Positions 1,236 to 48,714 of a stretch of 53,311 nucleotides of DNA are shown one piece after another. A program made the translations under genes and the position numbers. This DNA comes from a virus. Its lineage: Duplodnaviria; Caudoviricetes. The notes under the pieces were generated by a model. It had not been told where the DNA came from and made no database searches. It saw only the letters and a program-made list of their open reading frames with translations. Each line of letters opens with the position of its first letter. Positions within the stretch are counted from its first letter, which is position 1. The stretch spans positions 1-53,311 of IMG/VR virus record IMGVR_UViG_3300012853_000040. One strand, given 5' to 3'.

Positions 1236-1792
1236 CCATCTATCCCGACTTGCTGCCGTTCAAGCTGCGGGTTTTGCGGGCGCTGACCGACTCGCTGAAG
1301 CAGATCACGCCGGCCAACGGCTACGTCACCGACATGGCCGACTTCAACGACAACGGCGCCCTCACGGCGCGGGTTTATCGCGGCCGGGCCTGGTTCGGCG
1401 ACGACGATCCGATCCCGATGATCAGCATTCTGGAAGGCGTGCATCCAGCGGATGAGGTCGCCGAACCGCCGGCCGACACCCCCGTGGCCGAGTATGACTG
1501 GCCGATCATGATTCAGGGGTTCGTCGATGACGATCCGCTGAACCCGACCGATCCCGCATACCTGCTGCTGGCCGACGTGCGGAAGCGCTTGGCCTGGGAG
1601 CGGAAGCGCAAGCTGCCGACCGATCCGACTGAAGCTGATCCGCTAGGTTTAGGCCTTGGGAAGAACAGGATCACCAAGCTTTCGTTCGGTGCGGGTGTGG
1701 TCCGGCCGGCGGATGATGTCTCAGCCAGGGCGTATTTCTGGCTGAGCACTACTCTACGCATTGTTGACGATGCTTCAGCAGCGAGTGCGTAA
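1232..1792 (+). CDS. Tail terminator protein
   Basis: ITPANGY..D, VYRGR..FG, P.ISILE motifs; directly upstream of tail tube; start re-called at ATG 1232 (ATGA coupling). Confidence 0.7.
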   Translation: MTIYPDLLPFKLRVLRALTDSLKQITPANGYVTDMADFNDNGALTARVYRGRAWFGDDDPIPMISILEGVHPADEVAEPPADTPVAEYDWPIMIQGFVDDDPLNPTDPAYLLLADVRKRLAWERKRKLPTDPTEADPLGLGLGKNRITKLSFGAGVVRPADDVSARAYFWLSTTLRIVDDASAASA

Positions 1793-1861
1793 CTCTTCAC
1801 CCATCTTTCTTTGAACCCGGTTTCACTATATTGGTGAACCAACCACAACGGAGTGATCCTC

Positions 1862-2635
1862 ATGGGCAATCAAACCCTCGGCCGCGGGAAGGTCTATTTC
1901 TCGCTCTTTGCCCCCGGCGGCGACGGCTTTAACCCGGAAGGGTTCCGCTACCTGGGCAACACGCCCGAGTTCAACCTGACGATCGAGAACGAAACGCTCG
2001 ATCACTTCTCCTCGGACGAAGGTATCCGCGAGAAGGACAAGTCGATCGTCCTGGAGACGACGTCGACCGGCTCGCTGGTCTGCGACGACATCAACCTGGA
2101 AAATCTGGCGCTGTTCTTCTTCGGTTCGACGTCGGTGCTCTCGCAGACCTCGGCGACCGGCACTGTCGAAACCATCGCCGACGTGAAGCCGGGCCTGATG
2201 TATCAGATCGGCCGCACCACGGAGAACCCGACCGGCGTGCGGTCGCTGTCGAACGTCGTCGTCAAGGTCGCGTCGACCACGAAGGCGGCAGGCACCGACT
2301 ACACGGTGGACGTCGAACTGGGCCTGATCACGATCGTCAAGGGCGGCACCATCGCCAGCGGCGACGACATCGAAGTCACCTATGACCGCGCCGCCAAGAA
2401 CCGGACGCAGGTGATCTCGGGCACCGACCAGGTCAAGGGCGCGCTGCTGTACGTCTCGACCAACCCCGAAGGCGACAAGATGGACTACCTGATGTCCTCT
2501 GTCCGCCTGTCCCCGAACGGCGACTTCGCCCTGAAGTCGGACGAGTGGCAGCAACTCCCGCTGAACGTCGAGATCCTGAAGGCTCCGGGCAAGGAGCGGA
2601 TCTACATCGACGGCCGCCCCTTCACCGCGTCGTAA
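1862..2635 (+). CDS. Major tail tube protein
   Basis: LGRGKVYF, RYLGNTPEFNLTIE.E.LDH.SSD.G motifs; GGAG SD at ~1850. Confidence 0.88.
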   Translation: MGNQTLGRGKVYFSLFAPGGDGFNPEGFRYLGNTPEFNLTIENETLDHFSSDEGIREKDKSIVLETTSTGSLVCDDINLENLALFFFGSTSVLSQTSATGTVETIADVKPGLMYQIGRTTENPTGVRSLSNVVVKVASTTKAAGTDYTVDVELGLITIVKGGTIASGDDIEVTYDRAAKNRTQVISGTDQVKGALLYVSTNPEGDKMDYLMSSVRLSPNGDFALKSDEWQQLPLNVEILKAPGKERIYIDGRPFTAS

Positions 2636-2652
2636 CGAGGAAGGGCTGACCA

Positions 2653-3111
2653 ATGGGACCGTTTAATCTGGTCATCCCGACCGAAAAGGTTGAGGTCGCG
2701 GGCGGTGAACCGATCACCGTCCGCGGCCTCTCGCCGAACGACGGGCTGCAGCTTTACTATCGCCACTCCGGGCAACTGTCGGCGCTTTTCGATCAGTTCG
2801 CCGGCAAGGTGAAGTCCAAAGAACCCGTCGCCGAGTCCGACGTGATCCAGGCCGGCGTGACGATGGTGAGCGGTGCGCCGCTGATCATGGCCGAGATCAT
2901 CGCCCTGGCCATCGGCGCCAAGACCGACGACATCGAAGGGTTCGCCGAGATCGTGTCGAAGCTGATCGACTCGCCTGCAGGGTTCCAGATGGACGCCCTG
3001 CAGAAGATCGGGAAGCTGACCTTCTCCTCGGACATGCCGCCGGGAAAGTTCTTCGGCCTCGTGCTGGCGATGGCGCAAAGCGCGACGGCCGCTCTGAACC
3101 AGAAAGCCTGA
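2653..3111 (+). CDS. Tail assembly chaperone (G-like)
   Basis: Between tail tube and tape measure; VRGLS motif; in-frame slippery G GGA AAG at 3042-3048. Confidence 0.85.
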   Translation: MGPFNLVIPTEKVEVAGGEPITVRGLSPNDGLQLYYRHSGQLSALFDQFAGKVKSKEPVAESDVIQAGVTMVSGAPLIMAEIIALAIGAKTDDIEGFAEIVSKLIDSPAGFQMDALQKIGKLTFSSDMPPGKFFGLVLAMAQSATAALNQKA

Positions 3112-20233: not shown

Positions 20234-20929
20234 TCAGGCCAGCGCGGCCTCGAAGGGGTCGGCGGCGGCAGGGCGCACGGCGCCCAAAATCTCAGCAAGA
20301 GGATCACTTTGTGCGAACTTGTCAACCTGATTGCCCCAGGCGTTCCAACCTGGCCGTTGAGTGCGCGCGAACAGTTCAACATAGGGGCCGGCCGCAAGGC
20401 GCTCTATCCGCTCATAGCGCTCGTCCGGTTTGCGGCTGTGCTCGCGCTTCGGCGCGTAGATGATGCGGTCGACGTCGCCCGTCATTTGCCCCCACTCGGT
20501 CTCGATGAGCTGGCGCACCCCGGCGTCGAGGCGGCTGGGCTTACCCCGGCTGAACAGCAGCGAGTACTCGACCTGCTTGCGAACCCACTTGCCCATGCTG
20601 ATCGGGCGCACGGCCGGATCATGTTTGCCGGTCTTCACCCAGACGAAGCCGTCGCTCTTGAAGGTGAAGCCCCAGTGCCGGCCGAGTTCGATCGCCTGGT
20701 CGAGGTGGCTGCCGATCACCCACATATTCAGCAGGCAGTCCTTGGCGGCGAGATCCGCCACCGGCAGCGCCTTCATTTCGTCGAGCGACATTACAGGATA
20801 GGGCGCCTCGGCCGTGCGGTGCGGCGCTGACGCCTTGCCGGCGAAGCTGGTCCACGCCCAGGCGGGATCTGCTTCGATGAAGCCGTAGCCGTTCCGCTGC
20901 AACCCTTGGAAAGGGCCGTCCGGGATCAT
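20234..20929 (-). CDS. MT-A70 family N6-adenine methyltransferase
   Basis: ADPAW (DPPW-like), YP.M, F.W.K, REHSRKP, ELFAR, GW..WGNQ. Confidence 0.92.
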   Translation of the reverse strand: MIPDGPFQGLQRNGYGFIEADPAWAWTSFAGKASAPHRTAEAPYPVMSLDEMKALPVADLAAKDCLLNMWVIGSHLDQAIELGRHWGFTFKSDGFVWVKTGKHDPAVRPISMGKWVRKQVEYSLLFSRGKPSRLDAGVRQLIETEWGQMTGDVDRIIYAPKREHSRKPDERYERIERLAAGPYVELFARTQRPGWNAWGNQVDKFAQSDPLAEILGAVRPAAADPFEAALA

Positions 20930-21189
20930 CCGAGAACCCCGGCCATGGGGTCTTGATCGAGATCGGCCGCGGGGCGCGCCTCGACCTTCGGACGGCCGAT
21001 CTGACGCTTGACGTTCTGCCTGCGGAATCGCTCAACCTCGGCGTTCCAGAACGTCTGCGCCTTGTCGCGCGCCTCGGCCTCGCTGGCGCCGGGGACCAGC
21101 ACAGGCAGAAACTTCCCATCGGTTACGATGCGCGCCAGCCATGCGGAGGCGGGCGGGGCGTCGCTGCTGTACCAGACGCAGATCTTCAT
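20926..21189 (-). CDS. Hypothetical protein, C-terminus DPMAGVLG
   Basis: ATGA-coupled at both ends. Confidence 0.7.
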   Translation of the reverse strand: MKICVWYSSDAPPASAWLARIVTDGKFLPVLVPGASEAEARDKAQTFWNAEVERFRRQNVKRQIGRPKVEARPAADLDQDPMAGVLG

Positions 21190-21539
21190 CCGAACATATC
21201 CGCAAAGGGGTCGACGGAGACGGCGGCTATGGCCTGCTCCAGAGGGGTGGGCGGCAGCGACGGGGCGGCGTCAAGCGCGGCGCCGGCCGCCTTCGCCTCG
21301 TCCACGCCTGCGTTGTGCGGCGTCATGGGGCCGCGCCGCATCGTGTAGGGCACGAGGACATTCCAGATGGCGTCGATCGGATCGTCATGGATCTCGACCG
21401 TCCAGCCGCCGCTGCGGGTGTTCTCGATTGACGCCTGGAAGCGGCCGTCTTTCGTCGGGAAAACGTGCAGTCGCAGCGTTCGGTCAACCCCGAGACGGTG
21501 ACGCACGAAGTCTTCGATGGTGCGAAGGGCGGGCGTCAC
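21186..21539 (-). CDS. Hypothetical protein, C-terminus DPFADMFG
   Basis: Coupled overlaps at both ends. Confidence 0.7.
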   Translation of the reverse strand: MTPALRTIEDFVRHRLGVDRTLRLHVFPTKDGRFQASIENTRSGGWTVEIHDDPIDAIWNVLVPYTMRRGPMTPHNAGVDEAKAAGAALDAAPSLPPTPLEQAIAAVSVDPFADMFG

Positions 21540-25613: not shown

Positions 25614-26141
25614 TCAGTCGCAACCCCGACCGACGACGTTCTCGCCGTTGCTGGTGTCGACGAAGTCTTCCCAGAACCGCCAGCCCTTCGGACACCAGAA
25701 GCCCCAGCGCCGAACGCGGGGGCCAGTGATGAACAAGGTCCAGACGGGCTGCTCGCGCCCGGCGGGCGTCTTCAGCAAGGCCACCCGGTGCGCGGCCTTC
25801 GCGCCGCGGAGCACCACGGCGCCCTCTCGACGGCGAATCCGGGTGTGCAGGTGCGGGTGGCGAAGGACGTAGGTCCGATCGAAACGGTCGGTGTCGTGCT
25901 CGCCCGGCACTGCCTCGTCGTACTCGCCGACCAGCAGCCAGGACAAGTTGACCCAGGGGTGGTCGTGCAGCGCGCGGTCGTCGTCGGAGCGCAGGAAGTT
26001 GTGCAGGTAGATGTTGAAGAACCGGTTGCGCGGGATCAGATGCCAACGCAGCAGATAGGGGTTGTCCGATCCGCCAATGATGACGTCGGGATTCCTGGTC
26101 GGCAGCAGCCAGTGTCGGACGCGATGGGTGAAGGTCGTCAT
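25614..26141 (-). CDS. Phage cupin-like protein
   Basis: PYL.RW.L.PRN..FN.YLH.F.RSD.DR.LHDHPW...Y.E...H.V; WTLFITG...R.WGF. Confidence 0.75.
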   Translation of the reverse strand: MTTFTHRVRHWLLPTRNPDVIIGGSDNPYLLRWHLIPRNRFFNIYLHNFLRSDDDRALHDHPWVNLSWLLVGEYDEAVPGEHDTDRFDRTYVLRHPHLHTRIRRREGAVVLRGAKAAHRVALLKTPAGREQPVWTLFITGPRVRRWGFWCPKGWRFWEDFVDTSNGENVVGRGCD

Positions 26142-26617
26142 CCCAGCACCCCCGCCATCGGGTCCTCGACCACAGGCGCCAGCAGCGCAGCCCGGCGCTC
26201 CTGCAGCCGCGCGACCATGCCGTCCAGAACGTCGGGATCGGATATGTCCTCCAGGTCAGCGGCGGCGCAGATCGCCGCCTCGGCACTGACGACCGTGCCG
26301 GCGGTGCGTTGCGAGCGAGCGCACGCAGGGCAGGCGTCGGGAGACGGCGGGGGATTGCCGACGTGGGCCGTGGCGGGAAGACCAAGATGGTGGAGCATCG
26401 AGTCCACCGCGTCATCGTCGTCGGGGATCTCGACATAGCGCTGCACCGTGACGGGCGGAGCATCGCCCGGTCGCACGTCGAAGGTGTTGAGAAAGGCGAG
26501 CAGGCCGGGCTTGTCGGTTGGGACCTCGAACTGCTCGAAGTCCTTGCCGCCCTGGGCCTGGCGCGCGTCAGATTGGGTGCTGGTCCAGATCCGACCCAGG
26601 GAGCGGTAGAGTTTCAT
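26138..26617 (-). CDS. Hypothetical protein, C-terminus DPMAGVLG
   Basis: W..TQ.DA..EVPTDKPGLL.FLN; CPAC; coupled at both ends. Confidence 0.7.
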   Translation of the reverse strand: MKLYRSLGRIWTSTQSDARQAQGGKDFEQFEVPTDKPGLLAFLNTFDVRPGDAPPVTVQRYVEIPDDDDAVDSMLHHLGLPATAHVGNPPPSPDACPACARSQRTAGTVVSAEAAICAAADLEDISDPDVLDGMVARLQERRAALLAPVVEDPMAGVLG

Positions 26618-34560: not shown

Positions 34561-34776
34561 TCAGCCTAGAACGGCCGCCATAGGATCGGGCGGCGTCACG
34601 GCTTCAGCGACGCGGCGGCGGTCGCGGGCCTGACCGCTGACGCATTGACGACAAGCGCCGGTTGACGTGTACCGCTCGCCCGCCGGATGGCCGAACTTGC
34701 ACGGCGTGGCGGAGATGAAGAACCGCGCGCCAGCGTTGCGGGCGTCCAGGCGGGCGGGGTCGAGCTGGCGCGCCAC
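34561..34776 (-). CDS. Small Zn-finger protein, C-terminus DPMAAVLG
   Basis: PCK.GH...RY.STG.C..C. Confidence 0.7.
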   Translation of the reverse strand: MARQLDPARLDARNAGARFFISATPCKFGHPAGERYTSTGACRQCVSGQARDRRRVAEAVTPPDPMAAVLG

Positions 34777-36507: not shown

Positions 36508-39090
36508 CTATTCGAGGTCGTTGAGACCCATGCGGGCCAGCTTGCCGACCTCGCCGCCGCGGTAGAACACGCGCTGCTTGCCGTAGCCCTTGAAGCGATG
36601 CTGGGAGCCGTCGCCGCCCCAGCCCGGCACGCGGAGCATGGCGCGATTGACCATCGCCTGCTCCTGGGTCTTGAAGGCCCGCGGATCGCCGTTGAGGCAT
36701 TCCACCCAGATCTGGGCCGTGCAGGTCTCGTTGCGAACTTCGCCCTCACCCTCGTCGTCGAGGCCGCCATTGCTGACCGGGCGTTCGAGCCATTCTGCGA
36801 TGCGGCCGGCGAGGACGTCGTCGGCATTTTCGACGCGCCGCGACTCCTGCAGCCGTGCGGCATAGAGACGGGCGTCCGGATCGGTCAGATAGAGCGGCAG
36901 GGTGCCGTGGGCCTTCTCGGCGCGCATCTGACGATAGAGGGCGGTCGCCTCGGCCCACAACTGATCGACGGACTGCTCCAGGGCGTCCGTGTCGATTTCC
37001 TCGTCTTCGCCGAGGCGACACTGGACCGGCCAGAAGCGGCGTCCGCCCGTGTCGTCCTTCAGGTATTCCCGATCGTTGGTCGACCCGATGAAGATGCACT
37101 GCCGCGGAAACTCGCCGGCCCGGCGGGCGTAGGCCAGGCGGGCGCGATCCTTCTGGCGGCTGATGAACGCCTTGATGGCGCGCACGTCAGCGCGGCTGAA
37201 GCCGGTCAGCTCGGGGATCTCCATGATCCAGGCGCCCTGCATCAGTTCGATCATCTGCTTGGTGTCGCTGAACTCGCCGTCGAGTTCAGCGAACCAGCGA
37301 CGCCCGAGCACCGAGATGAAGGTGGACTTCCGCTTGCCCTGCAGGCCTTCCAGGATCGTCGCGAAGTCGAACTTGTGACCGGGCTCGAAGATCCGCGTCA
37401 CGGCGGCAACCATCATCAGGCGCGCGACGGTGCGGTGATAGATGTCGTCCGGCGCGCGCAGATAGTTGACGTACAGCGCCTCCACGCGAGGCACGCCGTC
37501 CCACTTCAGACCGGTCAGATATTCGCGCACCGGGTGGAACGCATTGCGATTGGCCGCGAGGACCACGGCAGCTTTGAGGTCCCGGTCTGAGACCTTCAGG
37601 CCATAGCCACCCTGACTTTGCGGCGCCTCCAGGATCGAGCGGATCGCGAAGTCGCGGTCATCCGACCACAGTTCGCCGTTCAGGGTGTCCTTCACGTCCC
37701 AGACGCGACCTTCGAGCTGGCGCGCCATCTTCACGGCGTTGCGGCGCCGGTTCTTCTGGCGCCCCGGCAAAGTGCGCTGGACCGTCTCCTGGGTGAACTC
37801 GTTGAGTTGCGGGAGCCCGACGATCCGCGGATCGTTGCAGATGATCAGCTCGACGTTGTGCAGCGTCGGCTTGGGGACTGATTTTTCTTCGGACAGGTCC
37901 AGCAGCGACAACCAGTCGCCGGCCGCGGGGTGCGCGGAAATCTTGGCGCCGTCGCCGCCGCCCGTGAACTCGTCGAGGTCATCGATCGCCGCGGGAGCAG
38001 GGGAGGGCTTGCCCCCCAGCACGTCCGCCAGCGGGTCGTCGACATCGGCCTGGGTCTGCGATTCCTCCAGGTCCAGCGTGTCGTCCTCGTCTTCCTCCTC
38101 GAAGCGGTTTCGCATGTCGGCGATGCGGGCCTGCTGCGCCCACTGGCGAATGGTCGCCATCGTGACCGGCTGACCCCGATACTTGCCGAAGGAGCGCCAT
38201 TTGATGCGCCGCATCTCGCGAAGTTGGCTGTCGCCCGTGAACTTCTTCGAGCGCTTGGTGTGCTGAATCCAGAGATCCAGCCCCTCCGCCGATCCGCCGA
38301 ACTGGTGGTGCAGCGCCTGGCCAAGCCGAACCCAGTCGTCATAGTGGAGATCGCTGATCTGGATCAGATCCAGCTCGCGTTCCAACTGCCCAGGCTTGAA
38401 GTCCAGCGGCTCACGCGCCTCGAAGGCGTAGGTCGAGGTCTCCGCAGCGCCTAGCGCTTCGATAACGGCTGAGGCGATGGTTGGCGCGATGCCCAGATCC
38501 AGCATCTGCAGATCGAAGGTGCGCTCCCAAACGTAGGGTCGCCCGGTGTCGGGGTGGATGCTGGGCGGCATGGCCACCTGCTTTCCCGTGCCGAACAGTT
38601 CGATTTCCCAGTCGTAGGACCATTTCTCCCGGACCTCGCCCGTGTCGTGGTCCACGACTTCACGGCGGTGTTTACCCTCTGACGTCAGCAGCAGCTTGCT
38701 GGAGAACGCCTTGTCCGAGATGAAATAGAGGTGCCGCGACTCGCCGCCGGAGCCAGAGGCCACGCGGGGCAGCGTATCGAGCCCGATGGTGGGGAGCAGG
38801 GCGCGGAGCGCGTCCCAGGCTTCATCGGCCAGTTCGGCAATGCGGATGTCGGCGTCCAGAACGTGGACGTAGCCGGCGGGCGTCAGCGATGGTTCGCCTA
38901 GCCGGAGGCCGAGGTTGTTGCCGGGTCGGTGGCTGCGCTGCAGTTCGTCTAGCGAGGCGACGGGCTTGTCTTGCCAGCCCTTGCCGATCGGCCGCTTCTC
39001 CCGTGGATGCAGCCAGTGGAGCGCAAACCCGGCTTCGCGCAGCGGCGCGATCGCGGACAAGACGCTCCCGTCGTGTTGGTCAGTGGTCAT
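36508..39090 (-). CDS. Primase-helicase (Prim-Pol + PriCT-2 + VirE/VapE ATPase)
   Basis: N.G.R.G, D.D, H.YF, V.MPPSIHP.TG..Y.W; YDDW..LG.ALH; G.QG..KST, EI.EL, GSTN..EYL.D.TG.RRF. Confidence 0.92.
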   Translation of the reverse strand: MTTDQHDGSVLSAIAPLREAGFALHWLHPREKRPIGKGWQDKPVASLDELQRSHRPGNNLGLRLGEPSLTPAGYVHVLDADIRIAELADEAWDALRALLPTIGLDTLPRVASGSGGESRHLYFISDKAFSSKLLLTSEGKHRREVVDHDTGEVREKWSYDWEIELFGTGKQVAMPPSIHPDTGRPYVWERTFDLQMLDLGIAPTIASAVIEALGAAETSTYAFEAREPLDFKPGQLERELDLIQISDLHYDDWVRLGQALHHQFGGSAEGLDLWIQHTKRSKKFTGDSQLREMRRIKWRSFGKYRGQPVTMATIRQWAQQARIADMRNRFEEEDEDDTLDLEESQTQADVDDPLADVLGGKPSPAPAAIDDLDEFTGGGDGAKISAHPAAGDWLSLLDLSEEKSVPKPTLHNVELIICNDPRIVGLPQLNEFTQETVQRTLPGRQKNRRRNAVKMARQLEGRVWDVKDTLNGELWSDDRDFAIRSILEAPQSQGGYGLKVSDRDLKAAVVLAANRNAFHPVREYLTGLKWDGVPRVEALYVNYLRAPDDIYHRTVARLMMVAAVTRIFEPGHKFDFATILEGLQGKRKSTFISVLGRRWFAELDGEFSDTKQMIELMQGAWIMEIPELTGFSRADVRAIKAFISRQKDRARLAYARRAGEFPRQCIFIGSTNDREYLKDDTGGRRFWPVQCRLGEDEEIDTDALEQSVDQLWAEATALYRQMRAEKAHGTLPLYLTDPDARLYAARLQESRRVENADDVLAGRIAEWLERPVSNGGLDDEGEGEVRNETCTAQIWVECLNGDPRAFKTQEQAMVNRAMLRVPGWGGDGSQHRFKGYGKQRVFYRGGEVGKLARMGLNDLE

Positions 39091-39633: not shown

Positions 39634-40233
39634 ATGAGTCTTGAAGCCGCCCTCGCAGCGCACGCTGAAGTGATTGCCGCCAACACCGCCGAAACCCGAC
39701 GCAACAACGACTTTCTGGAACGCGTGATCGCCGGCCAGGCCGCCGCCCTCGAAAAGATCGAGACGCCGAAGGCCCCGCGCACGACCAAAAAGGCCGACGC
39801 GCCTGCACCGGCCTCCGACGCCCCCTCTACGGCTCCGGCCGCTGAAGCGCCTGCGTCGGCTCCGACCCCCGAAGCCGCGTCGTCAGCAGCGACCGAGGTC
39901 AGCGACGCCGACGTGCGTAATGCGGCCGTCGCCTGGATGGCGAAGGTTGATCCGGCGGGTGAAGCCGACCCGAGCAAGAAGGACATGGCCAAGCGCACCG
40001 AATGCGCCGCCTTCCTGGGCGACATCCTGAACTGGATGGGATTCCCGGCCGGCGCGAAGATCACCGGCCCGGACGCCACCCTGTCGGCGGAGCAGCGCCA
40101 GCAGGCGGTCTTCTTCATCAACCGCCGCGCTGCCGGGCTGACTGTCGACTTCAGCGCCGACTACGACTTCGACGGCGACCCCGCCCAGGGCGCTGCAGCG
40201 GCTCCGGCCGCGGTGGTCGATCCTCTGGGCTGA
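39634..40233 (+). CDS. Hypothetical replication-module protein, C-terminus VVDPLG
   Basis: MSLEAAL start; Ala/Pro linker; acidic tail. Confidence 0.75.
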   Translation: MSLEAALAAHAEVIAANTAETRRNNDFLERVIAGQAAALEKIETPKAPRTTKKADAPAPASDAPSTAPAAEAPASAPTPEAASSAATEVSDADVRNAAVAWMAKVDPAGEADPSKKDMAKRTECAAFLGDILNWMGFPAGAKITGPDATLSAEQRQQAVFFINRRAAGLTVDFSADYDFDGDPAQGAAAAPAAVVDPLG

Positions 40234-40924: not shown

Positions 40925-41113
40925 ATGGAACCCGCCGCCGATCCCGTCTGGACATCCGACGTGCCCGCCCTCGCCACCGCGATGGAGGAACTGTCACCGG
41001 CCGAACGGGATCGGCGCATCGCCTTAGCAGGCGAGAAGATCGTGGACCTTCGGATGCCGCTGCTGCGTGAGCAACGCATCAACGCCGCGAAACGAAGCCT
41101 GGGAATCGCATGA
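40925..41113 (+). CDS. Small hypothetical protein
   Basis: 62 aa; ATGA-coupled to the next gene. Confidence 0.55.
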   Translation: MEPAADPVWTSDVPALATAMEELSPAERDRRIALAGEKIVDLRMPLLREQRINAAKRSLGIA

Positions 41114-42339
41114 CGGACGTTGAACGGCTAGATGACGACCTGGCGCACGCGCCGCTCGGCCCTTCGGCCGCAGAAGGTTGGGCCACCTGCTCCGACTATG
41201 TCAACGCGAACGCCGGCCTGCCGGATGAACCGACCTTCCCGGCCGCGGAGGGGACGGCTGCCCACGCCATTTCGGATCTGTGCTTGACGCTGGGATTCGA
41301 CGCCGCGGATTTCATCGGCACGACGACCAAGATCCTGGAGTGGGAGTTCACCTGGACCGCCGAGGACGCAGCCCTTCTGCAGCGCGGCATCGATCGTGTG
41401 CGAGCGTTGGGCGGCCAGTTCTACGGAGAGCGCCGGGTCGACATCGCCCACTGGACGATTCCCGGCCAGTTCGGAACGCTGGACCGCGCGGTGCTCGTTC
41501 TGATCGACGGCGTCTGGTGGATTTTCATCATCGACCTGAAGTGGGGCCGCTGGCCCGTGTATCCGGTCGACAACAAGCAGCTCGTCCTTTACGCGCTTGG
41601 CTTCTGGAACGACATCGCGCGTCACATCGTCGGCGAGGCGCCGGTTCGTTTCCACCTGGAGATCGATCAGCCGCGCTCAGCCGGCGGCGGCGGGGTCTGG
41701 CAGACGAGTCTCGATACGTTGCTGCGTGCCGGCGACTGGCTGCGCGAGCGCGCGACGGAAACCCAGGTCCCCTATCCCGAGCGCACGGCCTCGGAGAAGG
41801 GTTGCGCCTTCTGCCGTCGCAAACTGCTGAAGAACGGCGGCTGTTCGACCTATGACACCTTCAATCGTCTGCTGATCGGCGCCAAGTTCGACGAGGAGCC
41901 CGAGGTCACGGCGCTGGTCCCACAGGCAGCGCTGACGCCGGAACAGCGCGCGTTCGTCCTGTCGCACAAGAAGATGATCAGCACCTGGCTGGAGCAACTT
42001 GAGGCCCAGGAGCTTGAAGATTTCCTCGCCGGCCGCCCGACGCCAGGCCGCAAGGCGGTGGTGGATACCCAAAAGGGAACCCGCGCCAAATGGAAGAACG
42101 AGAAGGAGGCTGAGGCCGCCCTGGTGCCGCTTATCGGCGAGAAGAGTTTCACCAAGAAGTTGATAACGCCCGCGCAGGCGCGTAAGCAGATCTCCAAGGA
42201 GGACTTCGCCAAAATCGCTTCGGTCATCAATCCGGGCGAGAGCGGCAAGTCGATGGTCCCCCTTGAAGATGCACGGTCGGCGATCGCCGTCGTGCTTTTC
42301 GATGAAGAAGACGTAGAAGTCGGAGAAGACGAGAAGTGA
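41110..42339 (+). CDS. Cas4-like PD-(D/E)XK exonuclease (DUF2800)
   Basis: HA.L.PS.A..W..C, A.EGT.AH, FGT.D, DLK.G, N.QL.LYALG, C.FC. Confidence 0.88.
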   Translation: MTDVERLDDDLAHAPLGPSAAEGWATCSDYVNANAGLPDEPTFPAAEGTAAHAISDLCLTLGFDAADFIGTTTKILEWEFTWTAEDAALLQRGIDRVRALGGQFYGERRVDIAHWTIPGQFGTLDRAVLVLIDGVWWIFIIDLKWGRWPVYPVDNKQLVLYALGFWNDIARHIVGEAPVRFHLEIDQPRSAGGGGVWQTSLDTLLRAGDWLRERATETQVPYPERTASEKGCAFCRRKLLKNGGCSTYDTFNRLLIGAKFDEEPEVTALVPQAALTPEQRAFVLSHKKMISTWLEQLEAQELEDFLAGRPTPGRKAVVDTQKGTRAKWKNEKEAEAALVPLIGEKSFTKKLITPAQARKQISKEDFAKIASVINPGESGKSMVPLEDARSAIAVVLFDEEDVEVGEDEK

Positions 42340-43151
42340 GCACCAAACAACCCCTCCCGCCGTTCGAGATGACCCAGAACGGCAAGAACATCGAAATCAA
42401 GCTGCGGCGTGTCCCGCTGTCCTTCGCGGACGTGTGGGAAGCGGCCGAGAGCGAGGACGAGAACGGCAACAAGACCGGTCGCTTCAGTGTCTCCACCAGC
42501 GTGCTGCTGGCGAAGGACACCGAGCGCGGCAAGGCTCAGATCGGGGCCGTCCGTGAAGCCATGAAGATGGCCCGTACTGCTGAGTGGGGCGACGACGCGC
42601 CTGTCATCGGCGCGGACCGTCTGGCGCTGCAGGATGGCGAACCCATCGACCCGAACACGGCCGATCCGGACGTTCCGGGCAGCGGCGAACGCAAGGCCCG
42701 CTGGGACGGCTACGCCGGCATGATGTATGTGTCGGCCAAGCGTTACCTGAAGGCCAAGAACGCCGAGGACGCGGCGAAGGAACTGCGGGAGAAGCACCCT
42801 GTGCAGATCCTGGGTCCGCGCAAGACGGCCGTCGTCGATGGCAAGCCGGCCTTCCCGATCCTGAAGGAGTCGGACGACCTGATCTACAGCGGCGCGGTCT
42901 GCGATGTGATCATCCAGATCTATCCCTACAACGGCACCGGCAAGGGTTCGAACGGCAAGAACCTGCCCCACCGGATCAACGCCAGTCTGGAGGCGATCAA
43001 GTTCGTCGAGCACGGCACCCGCCTCGGCGGCGGCAAGCGCATCGACGCGCAGTCGGCCTTCGACGAGGAAGACGAGGACGATTACGACACCGACAGCGAG
43101 TCCGAGGCTTCGCCTTCGACCGGCGCCGTCATCGACGATCCCCTCGGCTGA
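42336..43151 (+). CDS. ssDNA-binding protein (DUF2815), C-terminus DDPLG
   Basis: V.LSF..VW, L.DG, YSG..C..I...Y, L..I.F...G..LGG; acidic tail. Confidence 0.85.
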   Translation: MSTKQPLPPFEMTQNGKNIEIKLRRVPLSFADVWEAAESEDENGNKTGRFSVSTSVLLAKDTERGKAQIGAVREAMKMARTAEWGDDAPVIGADRLALQDGEPIDPNTADPDVPGSGERKARWDGYAGMMYVSAKRYLKAKNAEDAAKELREKHPVQILGPRKTAVVDGKPAFPILKESDDLIYSGAVCDVIIQIYPYNGTGKGSNGKNLPHRINASLEAIKFVEHGTRLGGGKRIDAQSAFDEEDEDDYDTDSESEASPSTGAVIDDPLG

Positions 43152-43214: not shown

Positions 43215-45107
43215 ATGCTGACCTTCGGATCGGTCTGCAGCGGGATTGAAGCGGCCTCCGTCGCCTGGGAGCCGCTGGGATGGCGGGCCGTGTGGCTGTC
43301 AGAGATCGACAAGGCCGCCAGCAAAGTCCTCGCCTACCGCTTCCCGAACGTGCCGAACCATGGCGACATGCTGAAGCTGGCCGCGAAGGTGCGTGCCCGT
43401 GAGATACCGGCGCCCGACATCCTGGTCGGCGGCACACCGTGCCAGTCGTTCTCCGTGGCCGGGATGCGCCGCGGTCTGGGCGACCCGCGTGGCCAACTGA
43501 CCATTGCCTTCATCGACCTCGCCAACGCCATCGACGAGATCCGCGCTGCGGACGGCCTGCCGCCGGTCATCATCATTTGGGAGAACGTCCCCGGTGTCCT
43601 CACCCATCCAGACAACCCCTTCGGCTGCTTCCTTGCTGGCATTGCCGGCGAAGACGATGCAGTCGAGCCGGCAGGGAAGAAATGGACGAACGCTGGTTGT
43701 GTGTTTGGACCCCAAAGGCCAGTCGCGTGGCGGATCCTCGACGCCCAATATTTCGGATTGGCCCAACGACGCCGTCGTGTGTTCGTTGTCGCAAGTGCTC
43801 GTGAGGGGTTCGATCCCGCAGCAATACTTCTTGAGTTCGACGGCGTGCGCCGGGATTCTCCGCCGAGCCGAGACGCGGGGGAAGGCGTTGCCGGAACCGT
43901 TGATGCGCGCACTACAGGCGGTGGCTTACCTGGCTCAGACGGACCCTGCGGCGCGCACGACGTGCCCGCTATACGAGGTCACGCTGACGGACTCGGACAT
44001 CGCAGGCTTGGAGGAGCTGTTCCAGGACCCGATGGACTCGGTGATGGGGTAGATCTTCAGAATATCGCTCTGAGTGGTGATGCGGTGGGTACCATCGACA
44101 CCGGCATGGCGCGCGGGAATCGGGGTTACGGGGTGCTTGATCGCGCGCCCGTCCCACCAGGTGGGGACGGGCGCGCCGTATCGCAGACGCTCGATGCCGT
44201 ACTGCACAAGGGTCAGACGATGCCCGAGAAGAACCGCTTCCCGGCGGTACTTCAACCGGTCATCGAATCTGAGCTCTATTCCATCATGCCGATGAACAGC
44301 GGCAAGGACTACAAGGCCCGCAAGGTGGAGGTCACGCAGCCGCTCATGGGCGCAGGCCCAGTGGGCGGGAACCAGGGCGGCGACTACATCGTCCAGCCTC
44401 TCGACGTGTTGCCGTTCGACACCACCCAGATCACCAGCCCCGGCAACTTCAGCAGCCCGAACTATGGCGATCCTTCGCATCCGCTCGCGGCCGGAGCCCA
44501 CCCGCCCTCGGTTGTCTACTCCGTCGCCCTGCGCGGCCGGGAGGGCGGCGGTACGGCCGAACTCGGTGACGATCTCGCCGGATGCCTGCGCGCGTCGTCA
44601 GGCGGCGGTGACAAGCCGCATGTCCTGACACCGACAATCGCCTTCCAGGAGCGTGGGCGATCCGAAGGACGCAGTCTCGAAATCAATGGAGACCTCTCCT
44701 ACGCGCTGACGGCCCCATCCGGTGGCGGACGCGGGCAGGAGCGCAACATCCTCGACGGTGTCACCATGGCCGTCCGCCGCCTTATGCCCGTCGAATGCGA
44801 ACGCCTGCAGGGGTTCCCGGATAACTGGACGGCCGTTCCGGTCAAGAAGGTCGCCAGCAACAAGATGCGGCCGGGCAACAGCTACGCCGAGATCAACGCC
44901 GAGATTTGGCAATTGGCCGCTGATGGCCCCCGCTACAAACAGTGCGGGAACAGCATGGCGACCAAGGTTATGCGTTGGATCGGCAGCCGGGTCGCCTGGC
45001 ACCTCTCCACCCGGCTGCCGGGCCACAATGGCGGCCCGCCCCTCGACGACTTCGATCTGATGCTGGGCCTGGGCGTTCCCGATCCCATGGACGCGGTGAT
45101 CGGATGA
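43215..45107 (+). CDS. C5-cytosine DNA methyltransferase with long multi-TRD variable region
   Basis: SVCSGIEA, GGTPCQSFS, ENV, QRRRRVF, RRL.P.ECERLQGFPD, GNS motifs. Confidence 0.93.
   Translation: MLTFGSVCSGIEAASVAWEPLGWRAVWLSEIDKAASKVLAYRFPNVPNHGDMLKLAAKVRAREIPAPDILVGGTPCQSFSVAGMRRGLGDPRGQLTIAFIDLANAIDEIRAADGLPPVIIIWENVPGVLTHPDNPFGCFLAGIAGEDDAVEPAGKKWTNAGCVFGPQRPVAWRILDAQYFGLAQRRRRVFVVASAREGFDPAAILLEFDGVRRDSPPSRDAGEGVAGTVDARTTGGGLPGSDGPCGAHDVPAIRGHADGLGHRRLGGAVPGPDGLGDGVDLQNIALSGDAVGTIDTGMARGNRGYGVLDRAPVPPGGDGRAVSQTLDAVLHKGQTMPEKNRFPAVLQPVIESELYSIMPMNSGKDYKARKVEVTQPLMGAGPVGGNQGGDYIVQPLDVLPFDTTQITSPGNFSSPNYGDPSHPLAAGAHPPSVVYSVALRGREGGGTAELGDDLAGCLRASSGGGDKPHVLTPTIAFQERGRSEGRSLEINGDLSYALTAPSGGGRGQERNILDGVTMAVRRLMPVECERLQGFPDNWTAVPVKKVASNKMRPGNSYAEINAEIWQLAADGPRYKQCGNSMATKVMRWIGSRVAWHLSTRLPGHNGGPPLDDFDLMLGLGVPDPMDAVIG
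43504..44052 (+). CDS. Nested +1-frame protein inside the methylase (beta-subunit-like), C-terminus DPMDSVMG
   Basis: SLSQVL..IPQQYFLS..ACAGILRRAE.RGK.LP block; carries the phage-wide C-terminal tag; start uncertain. Confidence 0.65.
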   Translation: MPSSTSPTPSTRSALRTACRRSSSFGRTSPVSSPIQTTPSAASLLALPAKTMQSSRQGRNGRTLVVCLDPKGQSRGGSSTPNISDWPNDAVVCSLSQVLVRGSIPQQYFLSSTACAGILRRAETRGKALPEPLMRALQAVAYLAQTDPAARTTCPLYEVTLTDSDIAGLEELFQDPMDSVMG

Positions 45108-47149
45108 CCGGCAAGCCAACCGTCATCTGCGACACGGAGTGTTACCCCAACTTCTGGTCCATCGGCTTCAAGCGCATCAGCGACGGGAAGCTAGTGATCC
45201 TGGAGCACTCGCACCGCAAGTCGCTCGACGTCGATCGCCTGGCGTCGATCATGTCGACGCACGAGATCGTCACCTACAACGGCATGAACTACGACATGCC
45301 GATGATCCGGCTTGCAGCCGATGGCGCCAGCAACGCGCGCCTGAAGCAGGCCAACGACCAGATCATCATGGGCGGCCTCAAATACTGGGAGGTCGAAAAC
45401 GCGCTGGGCATCCGCATCCCACGCGAGTGGACGCACATCGATCTGATCGAGCCCCAGCCGAACGCCTGGGCAAGCCTGAAGACGCTGCAGGGGCGCCTGC
45501 ACGGCAAGAAGATGCAGGATCTGCCCTACAGCCCGGACACGGCGCTGACCGAGGAGCAGATGGATCTCGTCCTCGCCTATATGGCCAACGACTTGGACGC
45601 GACCCACAACCTCTATGACGCCCTGGCCGAGCCGATGGCCCTGCGCGCGGCGCTCAGTGACGACTACCGGACCAACTTCCGCTCCAAGTCGGACTCGCAG
45701 ATCGGCGAGGGCATCATCCGCAAGCGGGTCGAGCAGATCACGGGTCAGAAGGTCGAGAAGGCCAGCCTGCCGGCGGGGTGGAGCTTTCCCTTCAAGGCGC
45801 CGGAGTATCTGCGCTTCGAGCGGCCCGAACTGGCGGAGGTGCTGGAGCGGCTGAAGACCTCAACCTTCTACGTCCAGAACAACGGCAAGGTCGACCTGCC
45901 GGTGTGGCTGGAGAACAAGCAGATCAGCATTGGCGAGTCGACCTACGCCATGGGGATCGGCGGCCTGCATTCGACCGAGGCTAACCGCGCGGTCCATTCG
46001 GATGACGACTACCAGCTCGTCGACTTCGACGTGGCGTCCTACTACCCGAACATCATTCTCGGCTCGGGCCTGTACCCGACCGCGATCGGCCGCGTCTTCC
46101 TGGACGTGTACCAGGGCATCGTGGATGAGCGCGTCGCCGCCAAGCGTCAGATGCAGCGCTGCGACGACGACCTGAAGGTACTCCGATCCGAGAAAGCAGA
46201 TTCCGACGAAGCCAAGGATCAGATCAAGAAGCGCTACAAGGCCCTCGACGAGGAAAAGGAGCGCGCAAAGACGAAGGCCGAAGGCCTGAAGATCTCGGCC
46301 AACGGCGTCTACGGCAAGTTGGGCAGTCCGTGGTCGATCCTCTACGCTCCGCACCTGATGGTCGCCGTCACCCTGACCGGCCAGCTTGCCCTGCTGATGC
46401 TGATCGAGTGGGCCGAGGCGATGGGCATCTCGGTCGTCTCGGGCAACACGGACGGCGTGGTGTTCAAGGTCCCGCGCCACATGATGGGTCCGATCGAGAA
46501 GACCCGCGTCACCGCCGGGCCGGTCAAGGACTTGATCGAGCGCTGGGAGGCCGCGACCGGCTTTACCATGGAGGGCGTGCCCTACCGTTCGATCTACAAC
46601 CAGTCGGTCAACAGCTACATCGCCGTCAAGGAAGACGGGAAGGCCAAGCAGAAGGGTCCCGGCTGGACGGGTCGTCACGACGGCGACATGCGGACCCAGC
46701 TCATGAAGAACCCGCAGATGGAGATCCTGCGCGTCGCGGTGGCCGCCCTGCTGACCAAGGGCACGCCGATCGAGGACACGATCAACGCCGCGACGGACAT
46801 TCGTGACTTCGTCACCGTGGTCAACGTGAAGGGCGGCGGCACCTGGCGCGGCGACTATCTGGGCAAGGTGGTGCGCTACTACTGGTCCCAGGACGGCGAG
46901 GAGATCCTGTACAAGACGGCGGACCCGCGCACCGGCAACTTTAAGAAGGTGTCGAAGACGGACGGCTGTCGGCCGCTGATGGAACTGCCGGAGGACAACG
47001 TCATCCCGGCGAATCTGGACCGCGAGCGCTACATCGAGGCGGCCAAGGAGGTGCTGATGGACATCGGCGCCGAGAACCGGCCGCCGCCGGTCCGGCCGAT
47101 CCGGGTGTACCGCTACAACGCCATCGCGTGGTTCGCCCTGGCTGCCTGA
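45104..47149 (+). CDS. Family B DNA polymerase with 3'-5' exonuclease
   Basis: D.E, YNG..YD, Y..ND exo motifs; DV.SYYP, K...NG.YGK, NTDG pol motifs; start re-called at ATG 45104. Confidence 0.92.
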   Translation: MTGKPTVICDTECYPNFWSIGFKRISDGKLVILEHSHRKSLDVDRLASIMSTHEIVTYNGMNYDMPMIRLAADGASNARLKQANDQIIMGGLKYWEVENALGIRIPREWTHIDLIEPQPNAWASLKTLQGRLHGKKMQDLPYSPDTALTEEQMDLVLAYMANDLDATHNLYDALAEPMALRAALSDDYRTNFRSKSDSQIGEGIIRKRVEQITGQKVEKASLPAGWSFPFKAPEYLRFERPELAEVLERLKTSTFYVQNNGKVDLPVWLENKQISIGESTYAMGIGGLHSTEANRAVHSDDDYQLVDFDVASYYPNIILGSGLYPTAIGRVFLDVYQGIVDERVAAKRQMQRCDDDLKVLRSEKADSDEAKDQIKKRYKALDEEKERAKTKAEGLKISANGVYGKLGSPWSILYAPHLMVAVTLTGQLALLMLIEWAEAMGISVVSGNTDGVVFKVPRHMMGPIEKTRVTAGPVKDLIERWEAATGFTMEGVPYRSIYNQSVNSYIAVKEDGKAKQKGPGWTGRHDGDMRTQLMKNPQMEILRVAVAALLTKGTPIEDTINAATDIRDFVTVVNVKGGGTWRGDYLGKVVRYYWSQDGEEILYKTADPRTGNFKKVSKTDGCRPLMELPEDNVIPANLDRERYIEAAKEVLMDIGAENRPPPVRPIRVYRYNAIAWFALAA

Positions 47150-48714
47150 TGCTGACCCCGCACCAGGCCCTGCTGCTCTCCATCGCGACGCTGCAGCCCG
47201 GCATCATGCACAGCATCGTGCCAATCCGGCCCGAGATGCTGAACGCCGTCGTTCTGCGCGACTATCAGCTCGACCTGCTGCGGCGCGCCGCGGCGGCGTT
47301 CATGCAGGGCTATCGACGCGTCCTGATCGTGCTGCCGACCGGCGGCGGCAAGACAGTGCTGGCGGGCCAGGCGCTGAAGTGCGCGCAGAACCTCGACATG
47401 CTCGGCTGGTTCCTGGTCCATCGGAAGGAACTGATCGACCAGACCAGCAAATCCTTCCTCAAGATGGGTCTGCCGCACGGCTTCATCGCCTCCGGCCGCG
47501 ACATGGATCTGTCGGCGTCGACCATGCTGACCGGCGTCCAGACCCTGGTGAATCGGCTGGACGTCGTCCTCCCGCCGAACCTGATGATCGTGGATGAGGC
47601 GCACCACGCCGCCGCAGCCACCTGGGAGCGCGTCTTCGCCGCCAACCCGGACACCTTCGTCTTAGGCCTCACGGCGACGCCCGAGCGCCTGGACGGGAAG
47701 GGGCTCGACAGCCAGTTCGACGTGATGATCGTCGGCCCGTCGCCGGCCGAACTGATCGCCCGAGGCTTCCTCAGCCCGTTCGACTATTACGCCCCGAGCC
47801 TGCCCGACATGAGCGGTGTCCGCACCGAGCAGCAGGCCGAAGCGGTCATGGACCAGCCCGACCTGATCGGGGACATGGTCGAGCACTATCTGCGCCTGGC
47901 CAAGGGGGAGCCGGGACTCGTGTTCGCCCACTCGATCGAGCACAGCAAGCATCTGATCGACGCCTTCGCGGCCGAGGGCGTCCGCGCCGCCCACATGGAC
48001 GGCGACATGAGCGACAAGGAGCGTGAGCGCGTAGACGCCATGCTCCGCAACCGCGACATCGACCTGATGAGCAGCGTCCAGCTCGTCGGCGAGGGTTACG
48101 ACGTGCCGGAGGTGCGCTACTGCGGCATCGGCCGGCGCACCCAGTCGCTGGGGTGGTTCAAGCAGATGACGGGCCGGGTGATGCGGCCGGTCTATCTCAG
48201 CGGCGCCGACCTCTCAACGGACGGCGCGCGCCGACTGGCGATCGAGCGCGGGCCGAAGCCGCAGGCCATCATCGCCGACCACGCCTCGAACGTCTTCACC
48301 CACGGCTTCCCGGATGACGACGTCGAGTGGTCGCTGCTCGGCCGCGAGGGGCGCCCGAAGACCGGGGTCAACGACGACGCGGACCCGGTGCGCCAGTGCA
48401 TGGCGTGCTATCGGGCCTACCCGTCGCGCCTGAAGGCCTGCCCCGGCTGCGGCGCCACCCAGGCCACCTCACCTCGGCTGATCAAGGAGAAGGCCGGCGA
48501 ACTGGTGCGCCTGGAGCGCGAAGCGCTGAAGGCCAAGGCGGCTGAGGAGAAGAAGGCCGCGCAGCGCAAGCGCGAGGCTGAGGAGAAGGCCTGCAAAAGC
48601 TACGCCGACTTCCACGCCCTGGCCGTGGCGCGCGATTACGACGAGCCTCGGAAGTGGGCGAACATGAAGATCAGCTTGAAGAACAACTATAGCAAGAGGT
48701 TCCGCGGTGGCTAA
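47149..48714 (+). CDS. SF2 (DEAH) helicase with C-terminal Zn-finger
   Basis: LRDYQ, PTGGGKT, DEAHH, TATP.R.D, EG.D.P, QM.GR..R; C..C...CP.CG. Confidence 0.93.
   Translation: MLTPHQALLLSIATLQPGIMHSIVPIRPEMLNAVVLRDYQLDLLRRAAAAFMQGYRRVLIVLPTGGGKTVLAGQALKCAQNLDMLGWFLVHRKELIDQTSKSFLKMGLPHGFIASGRDMDLSASTMLTGVQTLVNRLDVVLPPNLMIVDEAHHAAAATWERVFAANPDTFVLGLTATPERLDGKGLDSQFDVMIVGPSPAELIARGFLSPFDYYAPSLPDMSGVRTEQQAEAVMDQPDLIGDMVEHYLRLAKGEPGLVFAHSIEHSKHLIDAFAAEGVRAAHMDGDMSDKERERVDAMLRNRDIDLMSSVQLVGEGYDVPEVRYCGIGRRTQSLGWFKQMTGRVMRPVYLSGADLSTDGARRLAIERGPKPQAIIADHASNVFTHGFPDDDVEWSLLGREGRPKTGVNDDADPVRQCMACYRAYPSRLKACPGCGATQATSPRLIKEKAGELVRLEREALKAKAAEEKKAAQRKREAEEKACKSYADFHALAVARDYDEPRKWANMKISLKNNYSKRFRGG

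Follow-up and report, generated by a model that had tools for sequence, protein, structure and literature searches.

The host methyltransferase gene and its second open frame

The window analyzed here is the whole 53,311-base IMG/VR provirus record IMGVR_UViG_3300012853_000040 (estimated completeness 80%), whose gene for an orphan-type phage C5 DNA cytosine methyltransferase encloses a second long open reading frame (ORF) shifted by +1. We call the methyltransferase gene, frame and product the host gene, frame and chain, and the enclosed ORF and its putative product nested. The host chain passes the curated threshold of PF00145 (E 1.6e-38; 133 bits against a cut-off of 22), scores 121 bits against TIGR00675 (cut-off 100.65) and also matches phrog_116. 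In a 40-row alignment (A2), which supplies the host residue numbering used throughout, motifs IV, VI, VIII, IX and X all fall within the single host chain, the invariant columns being P75 C76 Q77, E123 N124 V125, Q184 R185 R186 R188, R521..G533 and G578 N579 S580. An earlier note on this DNA, made from its letters alone, had likewise placed motif IX in the main chain, where it occupies residues 520-536. The features at the locus are:

43215..45107, plus strand: host gene, an orphan-type phage C5 DNA cytosine methyltransferase of 630 amino acids (stop codon included in the coordinates)
Host motif I: FGSVCSGIE
Host motif IV: GGTPCQ, containing P75, C76 and Q77
43581-43595, plus strand: host motif VI, ENVPG, residues 123-127
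43764-43778, plus strand: host motif VIII, QRRRR, residues 184-188
44772-44822, plus strand: host motif IX, VRRLMPVECERLQGFPD, residues 520-536
44946-44954, plus strand: host motif X, GNS, residues 578-580
43504..44052, plus strand: nested +1 ORF in its longest form, 182 codons from a TTG start, with a TAG stop at 44050-44052
43935..44501, minus strand: ORF of 188 codons with the same third-position phase as the nested frame

The nested frame is +1 relative to the host frame ((43504-43215) mod 3 = 1), such that nested residue k shares bases with host residues k+96 and k+97, and the ORF and motif coordinates bear out the earlier claim that its 182 codons overlap host motifs VI-VIII. It reads ...NISDWPNDAVVCSLSQVLVRGSIPQQYFLSSTACAGILRRAETRGKALPEPLMRALQAVA...DPMDSVMG*, while the main frame terminates in DPMDAVIG*; when compared with the ORF listing and its translation, the strings, coordinates and both matching ends reported in the earlier note proved correct throughout. 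The same is true of its observation that the +1 codons near 43960-44052 are rich in G and C at third positions (GC3): in 90-nucleotide windows from 43935 to 44069 the +1 phase has a GC3 of 0.90, compared with 0.33-0.47 for the main phase. Over about 43755-44150 the respective values are 0.76-0.90 and 0.33-0.67, as against 0.8-0.9 for the main phase elsewhere in the methylase gene, with the caveat that the minus-strand ORF at 43935..44501 has the same third-position phase as the +1 frame; it may account for the GC-rich phase that persists beyond the nested stop, from 44052 to about 44160. The open +1 frame is not an assembly slip, since contigs from four public soil-metagenome runs, two of them possibly the source of the window, are identical to it wherever they cover the gene, with 0 indels.

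Distribution of the nested frame in phages and prophages

A tblastn search with the last 92 nested residues recovered 136 phage records at E<=0.01, with identities of up to 74% over about 50 residues. Nine annotated phages were fetched, and in eight of these the match lies in the +1 frame of the annotated methylase, namely in P1, Sinorhizobium phage NV1.1.1, Enterobacter phage CobraSix, Vibrio phage CP-T1, Streptococcus phage Javan105, Akkermansia phage Chantilly, Roseobacter phage CRP-821 and Mycobacterium phage Omega; the nested ORF is unannotated in all eight. Faecalibacterium phage Toutatis, the ninth, likewise has the motif +1 to motif VIII, but there motifs IV-VI lie in the nested frame, with the switch at a G run. 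We further picked 80 viral loci by the first 190 methylase residues only, to avoid selecting on the nested frame itself. Their host ORFs range from 377 to 852 amino acids, and the +1 frame is open for 133-218 codons in 78 of the 78 complete loci; the interruption in close homologues that the earlier note had named as evidence against a nested product was thus not seen. The strict pattern YFLS..AC.GIL occurs in 73 of these 80 loci and in no other frame, two of the remaining seven being cut by the locus end and five carrying variant motifs.

Among 169 loci in all, 153 bear the nested motif, which is +1 to motif VIII in 142, the motif VIII pattern giving no match in the other 11. Of 600 candidate stretches in bacterial genomes, 511 encode a relative; the best 80 are located at prophage-like sites in Sphingomonas, Pseudomonas, Burkholderiaceae, Enterobacterales, Magnetospirillum, Aeromonas and a few metagenome-assembled genomes of other phyla, and 69 of them have the motif +1 to motif VIII. 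In the P1 gene dmt, the nested ORF (NC_005856.1 66728..67201; 1283-1756 of locus L001) encodes 157 amino acids from an ATG with GGAG upstream; the only long open stretch of the +1 frame there spans codons 98 to 262 (163 codons), the next largest gap between stops being 60, and the frame is still open at a regional GC content of 53%. In the Streptococcus phage the +1 frame is riddled with stops outside the nested ORF.

Certain loci depart from the common arrangement. In phage Omega (L004 1517-2821) a stop splits the host frame into gp127, with motifs I-VIII, and gp128, with the target-recognition domain (TRD) and motifs IX and X; the nested ORF is retained despite this split. In Toutatis (FP_Toutatis, L006, about 1575-3000), motif VIII, the TRD and motifs IX-X are at -1 to the nested segment, and the long frame continues into a new motif I (GSLFDGIGGFPL), an arrangement that suggests tandem or permuted methylase units in Firmicutes phages. 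We also considered, and rejected, a natural split 'beta subunit' architecture for those long database proteins whose nested segment continues into a TRD and motifs IX-X (22 of the best 150). Frames joined in this manner occur in only two of the 153 motif-bearing viral loci, L090 and L096, where the host frame stops early and the junctions lie at or near G runs; we read such proteins as frameshift derivatives favoured by gene callers, and trace the long 'beta-like' database entries (P0110, P0116, P0118, P0127 and others) to junctions of this type.

Selection on the nested frame and conservation of its start

For estimates of selection we used 52 non-redundant sequences, of less than 90% nucleotide identity, and computed the same-codon share, i.e. 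the share of sequence pairs with an identical host amino acid that also have an identical codon. Its median is 0.36 in host residues 1-96 (92 columns), 0.62 in residues 104-172 (66 columns; Mann-Whitney p 2.5e-13, shared ancestry ignored) and 0.87 in residues 173-236 (64 columns; Mann-Whitney p 1.8e-21, shared ancestry ignored). Constraint on synonymous sites of the host frame therefore sets in where the nested ORF starts; this is the comparison across homologues that the earlier note had suggested as a check, and the rise from 0.36 through 0.62 to 0.87 agrees with its expectation. Nested-frame identity rises from 0.25-0.42 upstream to 0.6-0.85 in the core, and within host residues 211-240 it exceeds that of the host frame, at 0.85 vs 0.67, 0.54 vs 0.23 and 0.38 vs 0.16. 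A by-product frame cannot exceed the selected frame in conservation. Pairwise nucleotide diversity by host codon position shows the normal pattern upstream (0.24/0.16/0.61), shifts to 0.32/0.18/0.22 in residues 196-222, where the nested third position is the most variable, and reaches 0.62/0.52/0.40 in residues 223-236; across residues 196-236 the variation is distributed as reading of the nested frame would predict. These substitution patterns show the nested frame to be under purifying selection.

The earlier note had described the main frame over about 43960-44052 as reading like off-frame filler. Past motif VIII the nested frame does show higher conservation than the host frame, but the latter is not filler throughout the overlap, being conserved against that of the closest relative, locus L010, to about residue 255. 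Given this conservation, we regard roughly 43735-43980 as truly dual-coding on comparative grounds, and the strongly constrained stretches of the nested and host frames largely alternate. With the recurrence in relatives of the frame, the motif and a C-terminal tag considered below, and with host-frame synonymous sites constrained, the comparisons confirm the observation made in the window as more than a chance occurrence.

An ATG lies 17 codons before the +1 reading of ENVPG in 51 of the 52 sequences, being built from a T-ending host Asn or Asp codon (AAT or GAT) and the G of the next Ala codon; the baseline share of T-ending codons for Asn and Asp is 0.44 (n=344, host residues 1-96). A GGAG-like stretch often stands 7-9 nucleotides upstream of this ATG, and the median pairing with the anti-Shine-Dalgarno sequence is -3.7 vs -2.6 kcal/mol at 724 control ATGs, a modest difference. 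A second common ATG (S-M-P-N-I-S, from GAT GCC of host LDAQ) is present at baseline level (18/52) and does not qualify as a conserved start. The window itself offers the following around its start:

43525..43527, plus strand: ACG in place of the family ATG, the host codon being AAC; no Shine-Dalgarno (SD) sequence
43504, plus strand: candidate start TTG, common to loci L010 and L017; no SD, pairing -1.5 kcal/mol
43594..43596, plus strand: candidate start GTG, with GGGAGA upstream (43579-43584, host TGG GAG AAC), which would give 152 amino acids
43657..43659, plus strand: candidate start ATG, which would give 131 amino acids; weak SD pairing of -2.1 kcal/mol

The anti-SD pairing of GTG 43594, at -7.3 kcal/mol, is the strongest of all the window candidates.

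The nested protein and its predicted contact with the methylase

A 60-sequence alignment of nested products (A1) has 11 invariant and 29 nearly invariant columns, most of them in residues 57-137. The main elements of the nested protein in the window are:

43672..43914, plus strand: conserved core, nested residues 57-137, QG.NGRTLVVC.DPK.QS.G...PNISEWPNDAAVCSLSQVLE..SIPQ.YFLS..ACAGILRRAEKRGK.LP..L..AL
43837..43941, plus strand: predicted helical hairpin, helices 112-125 and 131-146, with a predicted local distance difference test score (pLDDT) above 90
43942..44025, plus strand: lineage-specific C-terminal extension, ..QTDPAARTTCPL.., also present in the closest relatives (P0002, P0003, P0005, P0107 and L010)

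Weak strands are predicted at nested residues 52-56 and 64-68, and the bases 43837..43941 that encode the hairpin specify a weakly conserved linker in the main frame. Relatives in protein databases comprise 105 short predicted proteins and 2,129 cluster representatives at E<=0.001, nearly all unnamed and a few termed 'hypothetical protein' or 'uncharacterised', with the exception of P0091 (74 amino acids), which is labelled a precorrin-3B methylase; the ESM Atlas contributes unnamed 'hypothetical protein' clusters of 138, 72 and 63 members, mostly viral. The PHROG match is marginal (phrog_31473, E 0.0013). The likeness that the earlier note had perceived to the segment following motif VIII in single-chain C5 methylases did not hold up in profile searches: PF00145 matches none of the 60 nested sequences at E<=10, there is no relevant match in the PDB, and hhalign gives a probability of 0.1% between the nested and host profiles. 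A displaced copy of a methylase element is likewise unsupported by the latter comparison with the host profile.

We modeled a complex of the host chain and the nested chain from alignments A2 (40 rows) and A1 (60 rows), respectively, a heterodimer prediction being among the checks proposed in the earlier note. The prediction scores 0.87 (runs 0.87, 0.89 and 0.84), against 0.08 for the best of three controls, though the two chains being co-encoded calls for caution; the partner pLDDT is 58 or higher, and the runs share 59% or more of their contacts. In calibration, 58 of 80 solved complexes attained this mark, as did 2 of 110 mismatched pairs, a guide that is only rough here since our own alignments were used. 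The predicted interface joins nested residues 35-140 to host residues 140-219 and 517-531, 554, 588 and 600, the latter in the area of motifs IX and X, and at its core nested 63-68 pairs in antiparallel orientation with host 157-165, the strand directly before motif VII, which appears as strand E160-164 in the model of the host chain alone. In that AlphaFold model, host residues 210-503 fall below a pLDDT of 50. We take the complex prediction as support for binding to the methylase, not as a demonstration of it.

A C-terminal tag shared by the nested and host products

Both products in the window end in a closely similar short peptide, which we term the house tag and which recurs at the ends of other ORFs of the provirus:

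44026..44052, plus strand: nested-protein tag DPMDSVMG with stop
45081..45107, plus strand: methyltransferase tag DPMDAVIG with stop, with the tag-like DDFDLMLG just upstream
20234-20260, 20926-20952, 21186-21212, 26138-26164 and 34561-34587, minus strand: tag ends
229-243, 40219-40233 and 43137-43151, plus strand: tag ends
20234..20929: second DNA methylase (phrog_359), a tag bearer

The stretches coding for the first two tags (44026-44048 and 45081-45103) match at 19 of 23 nucleotides. In a six-frame translation of the window, DP[LMF]..[VMILA][LIMFA][GA] followed by a stop occurs seven times, each time terminating a long ORF, against a mean of 0.01 in 200 shuffles, and DPLG with a stop occurs three times against 0.09 expected. 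In all, ten provirus ORFs terminate in the tag, including those for the host methylase, the nested protein, the second DNA methylase, a Gp2.5-like protein, in which the tag follows an acidic stretch, and several small proteins. Internal tag-like copies are also seen on the minus strand at 20282-20305 and 38014-38037.

Where nested ORFs carry the extension, their ends agree with the host end within an element and differ between elements:

Window: host DPMDAVIG, nested DPMDSVMG
L010: host EFDALLAA, nested EFDNLLMS
L174: host FSDLLG, nested FGDLLG
L173: host IEDMFD, nested LEAMFG
L172: host FDEVLG, nested IEDLLG

Among database proteins closely related to the nested one, the termini read ..DLMDLLG, ..EAMLG and ..VTLLG. 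Such co-variation is as expected of a short terminal peptide co-evolving with one element-specific partner. The earlier note had taken the shared tag as independent evidence of a nested product, and the ten tagged ORFs (against expectations of 0.01 and 0.09) together with the co-variation in L010, L172, L173 and L174 strengthen that argument: by comparison of ends, the tag is good independent evidence that the nested stop terminates a real protein. Presumably, the tag directs its bearers to one common partner, either as a docking site for a replisome component, as the analogy with the gp2.5 tail would suggest, or for a protease or its adaptor; a role as a degron is no less plausible than a docking role. 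Many host methylases end in ..AA (..REAA, ..KAA, ..VAA; loci L171-L250 and L010-L089), and many nested products of Pseudomonas prophages in ..TAA. Terminal Ala-Ala is typical of ClpXP-type degrons, and this resemblance makes proteolytic control worth considering.

A candidate overlapping gene and the alternatives

In the family at large, the nested ORF is very probably a real protein-coding gene, and the dual-coding DNA with a genuine +1 product proposed in the earlier note finds backing in the frame open in all 78 complete loci, the synonymous constraint and the switch of codon phase after motif VIII. As a reasonably likely explanation of the whole, we posit that a genuine overlapping gene of great age lies within the N-terminal catalytic domain of a family of C5 methyltransferases from phages and prophages, and that it encodes a small partner or subunit of the hosting enzyme. 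In the family, the nested frame would be translated independently, from the internal ATG 17 codons ahead of the +1-read motif VI, to yield a product of about 125-180 amino acids with a Ser/Thr/Pro-rich, mostly unstructured N-terminal half, followed by a short strand (..TLVVC..), the conserved SEWPNDAAVCSLSQVLE..IPQ.YFLS stretch and a basic helical hairpin (ACAGILRRAEKRGK.LP..L..AL). This product would most likely serve as a small partner or subunit of the methylase, predicted to lie against the edge strand that precedes motif VII, the segment following motif VIII, and motif IX; in the provirus lineage, both proteins have in addition gained the house tag DP....[LIM]G-COOH, which the Gp2.5-like single-stranded DNA (ssDNA)-binding protein, the second methylase and several small proteins bear as well. 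The partnership with the methylase, taken by itself, we consider evenly balanced. A more specific and tentative extension is that the nested protein might be an obligatory or regulatory subunit that augments the edge strand of the methylase and contacts motif IX, while the tags shared with the ssDNA-binding protein couple the methylase to a common hub, be it the replisome or a protease. On that subunit reading, the 'single-chain' orphan C5 methylases of phages of Proteobacteria, Actinobacteria, Firmicutes and Verrucomicrobia, P1 dmt among them, could conceivably be two-chain enzymes, a suggestion that we offer just as tentatively.

Several observations weigh against the proposal of an embedded gene for a methylase partner. 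The window is the sole sequence of the 52 without the conserved ATG, with the SD sequence also lacking there, and its start would have to be one of the candidates TTG 43504, GTG 43594 or ATG 43657, none of which is favoured; this is the main weakness of the window relative to the family. Modeled alone by AlphaFold, the nested protein has a mean pLDDT of 64 and is confident only over about 40 residues (about 105-146). Searches of Pfam, NCBIfam and the PDB with the nested protein or the 60-sequence profile gave no meaningful relative, and none of the RNA runs is listed as containing the nested stretch. The host chain has all the canonical motifs, IX and X too, and so presents no evident gap for a subunit to fill. 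The best predicted residue pairs (e.g. host 163 with nested 65) fall on the co-encoding diagonal, and covariation through shared nucleotides may have inflated the binding score if the predictor matched up rows of the two alignments, a bias to which the controls are blind. The p-values for the same-codon shares ignore phylogeny, such that the effect sizes carry the evidence, and the tag pattern was composed after examples had been seen, though the excess is very large.

The main rival is a real nested protein that functions independently of the methylase, e.g. as a DNA-binding regulator or an anti-defence or replication accessory that arose by overprinting. This would accord with a host enzyme that already has all ten motifs, with the basic, helix-turn-helix-like hairpin and its lack of similarity to any methylase part, with a house tag borne also by non-methylase proteins such as the Gp2.5-like ssDNA-binding protein, and with a binding prediction perhaps biased by co-encoding. 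Nevertheless, even very distant phages show no copy of the ORF away from this methylase (142 of 153 loci have it +1 to motif VIII, and the motif VIII pattern gave no match in the others), the complex prediction passes its controls (0.87 vs 0.08), and the nested tag co-varies with that of the host methylase in five of the five lineages that have the extension; hence, we think this rival unlikely. As for the window itself, its loss of the ATG and the absence of an SD sequence before TTG 43504 (pairing -1.5 kcal/mol) could mean that the gene is decaying there, the change of ATG to ACG having left the open frame and tag as recent remnants. Such decay seems improbable in the face of 182 codons intact at 65% GC with a nested-frame GC3 of 0.8-0.9, the retention of the invariant residues, an intact lineage-specific extension and a tag that matches the host's, the presence of the same TTG in L010 and L017, the superior SD pairing of GTG 43594, and an identical sequence in contigs from four runs. 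The nested gene is probably still functional in the window despite its lost ATG.

The two remaining explanations dispense with an independently started gene. Ribosomal frameshifting or transcriptional slippage could lead into the nested frame and yield a truncated isoform in which motifs I-VI are fused to the nested C-terminal part. This would fit Toutatis, where motifs IV-VI share the frame of the nested segment, motif VIII lies at -1 and a G run marks the switch. It would also fit the database protein P0232, a single frame of which spans motifs I-VI, the nested segment and motifs IX-X, and the want of the conserved ATG in the window. However, synonymous constraint begins at the conserved ATG (host residue 104) rather than at a downstream shift site, the ATG itself stands in 51 of 52 sequences against a baseline of 0.44, the two joined-frame viral loci of 153 (L090 and L096) look like indels at G runs, and no conserved slippery heptamer was noticed, a systematic scan not having been made. 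Moreover, a C5 methylase without motif VIII cannot be active, and the product of such a shift would lack it. We regard this explanation as very improbable. Finally, there might be no second gene at all, the open frame being a by-product of a conserved host protein in GC-rich DNA, where long spurious ORFs do occur, or of the minus-strand ORF at 43935..44501 with its identical third-position phase; in addition, the +1 reading of conserved motifs is necessarily conserved (e.g. ENVPG gives G[KR]TSP). This notion is hardly credible: the frame is open in low-GC phages too (P1 and the Streptococcus phage), is better conserved than the host frame at residues 211-240, becomes the one whose third position varies most, starts at a codon conserved above the codon-usage baseline and ends in a tag pattern found seven times against 0.01 expected. 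The alignments contradict it, and it would regain weight only if near-identical sequences prevailed in them, against which a filter at 90% nucleotide identity had been applied.

Relationship to known systems and implications

The precedent invoked in the earlier note is real: M.EcoHK31I (PMC2836561) is a C5 methyltransferase whose beta chain is encoded in an alternative frame within the gene for the alpha chain. As in that system, a C5 methylase gene here contains a second complete ORF in another frame, and the products are proposed to assemble (PMC2836561). In contrast, the beta chain of M.EcoHK31I supplies a motif IX that is missing from alpha, both chains being needed, whereas the host chain here has motifs IX and X and the nested product, placed over motifs VI-VIII, is without a canonical motif. 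As the small chain supplies no missing motif IX, the nested system is, from its motif content, not of the EcoHK31I type. It also differs in reach, with M.EcoHK31I known as one enzyme and the nested ORF conserved across phages of several bacterial phyla. A second parallel is lambda Rz/Rz1, in which the o-spanin gene is embedded in the +1 frame of the i-spanin gene and the two encode subunits of one complex (PMC5295617). Both cases present a wholly embedded +1 phage gene with constrained stretches of one frame lying over relaxed stretches of the other (for Rz/Rz1, PMC5295617), a complementarity that is seen here at host residues 211-240. In contrast to the lysis proteins Rz/Rz1, the present system concerns DNA modification by unrelated proteins, with binding a matter of prediction only.

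Split C5 methylases offer a further comparison. M.AquI is a naturally split C5 methyltransferase, and as in that enzyme and in the artificially bisected M.HhaI and M.SssI, the catalytic and target-recognition parts are separable, as in gp127/gp128 of Omega; by contrast, the host chain in the window is continuous, and the nested protein is an extra chain rather than a piece of the canonical fold. The house tag in turn recalls the acidic C-terminal tail of T7 gp2.5, which mediates replisome contacts. As with such tails, it terminates a Gp2.5-like protein after an acidic stretch, but its sequence differs and it is common to at least ten proteins, including two methylases.

No description of the nested ORF was found in open-access papers and bioRxiv (supplements excluded). 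Should the nested protein be produced, hundreds of phage and prophage genomes, that of the model phage P1 among them, contain an overlooked gene. It would rank among the long same-strand overlaps with the broadest conservation known for tailed phages, and would provide the second natural case, after M.EcoHK31I, of a cytosine methylase gene encoding two chains. Recoded or codon-optimised methylase constructs would then silently destroy the nested gene, with effects on the annotation, cloning and assay of phage orphan methylases; the overlap would equally bear on estimates of selection for methylase genes and, through the shared C-terminal tag, on the targeting or timing of anti-restriction methylation. 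The genetics of P1 is suited to a direct test, because the change of the nested-frame ATG to ACG is silent in dmt.

Genomic context

The methylase gene is embedded in a replication module, the other members of which are:

41110..42339: exonuclease
42336..43151: Gp2.5-like ssDNA-binding/annealing protein
45104..47149: DNA polymerase
47128..48714: helicase

A promoter scan returned 0 sites, and a lone terminator-like match was within expectation. The stop of the methylase gene and the start of the DNA polymerase gene overlap (ATGA) at 45104-45107, and the same kind of start/stop overlap joins the exonuclease and gp2.5-like genes at 42336-42339; the replication genes here are thus tightly coupled.

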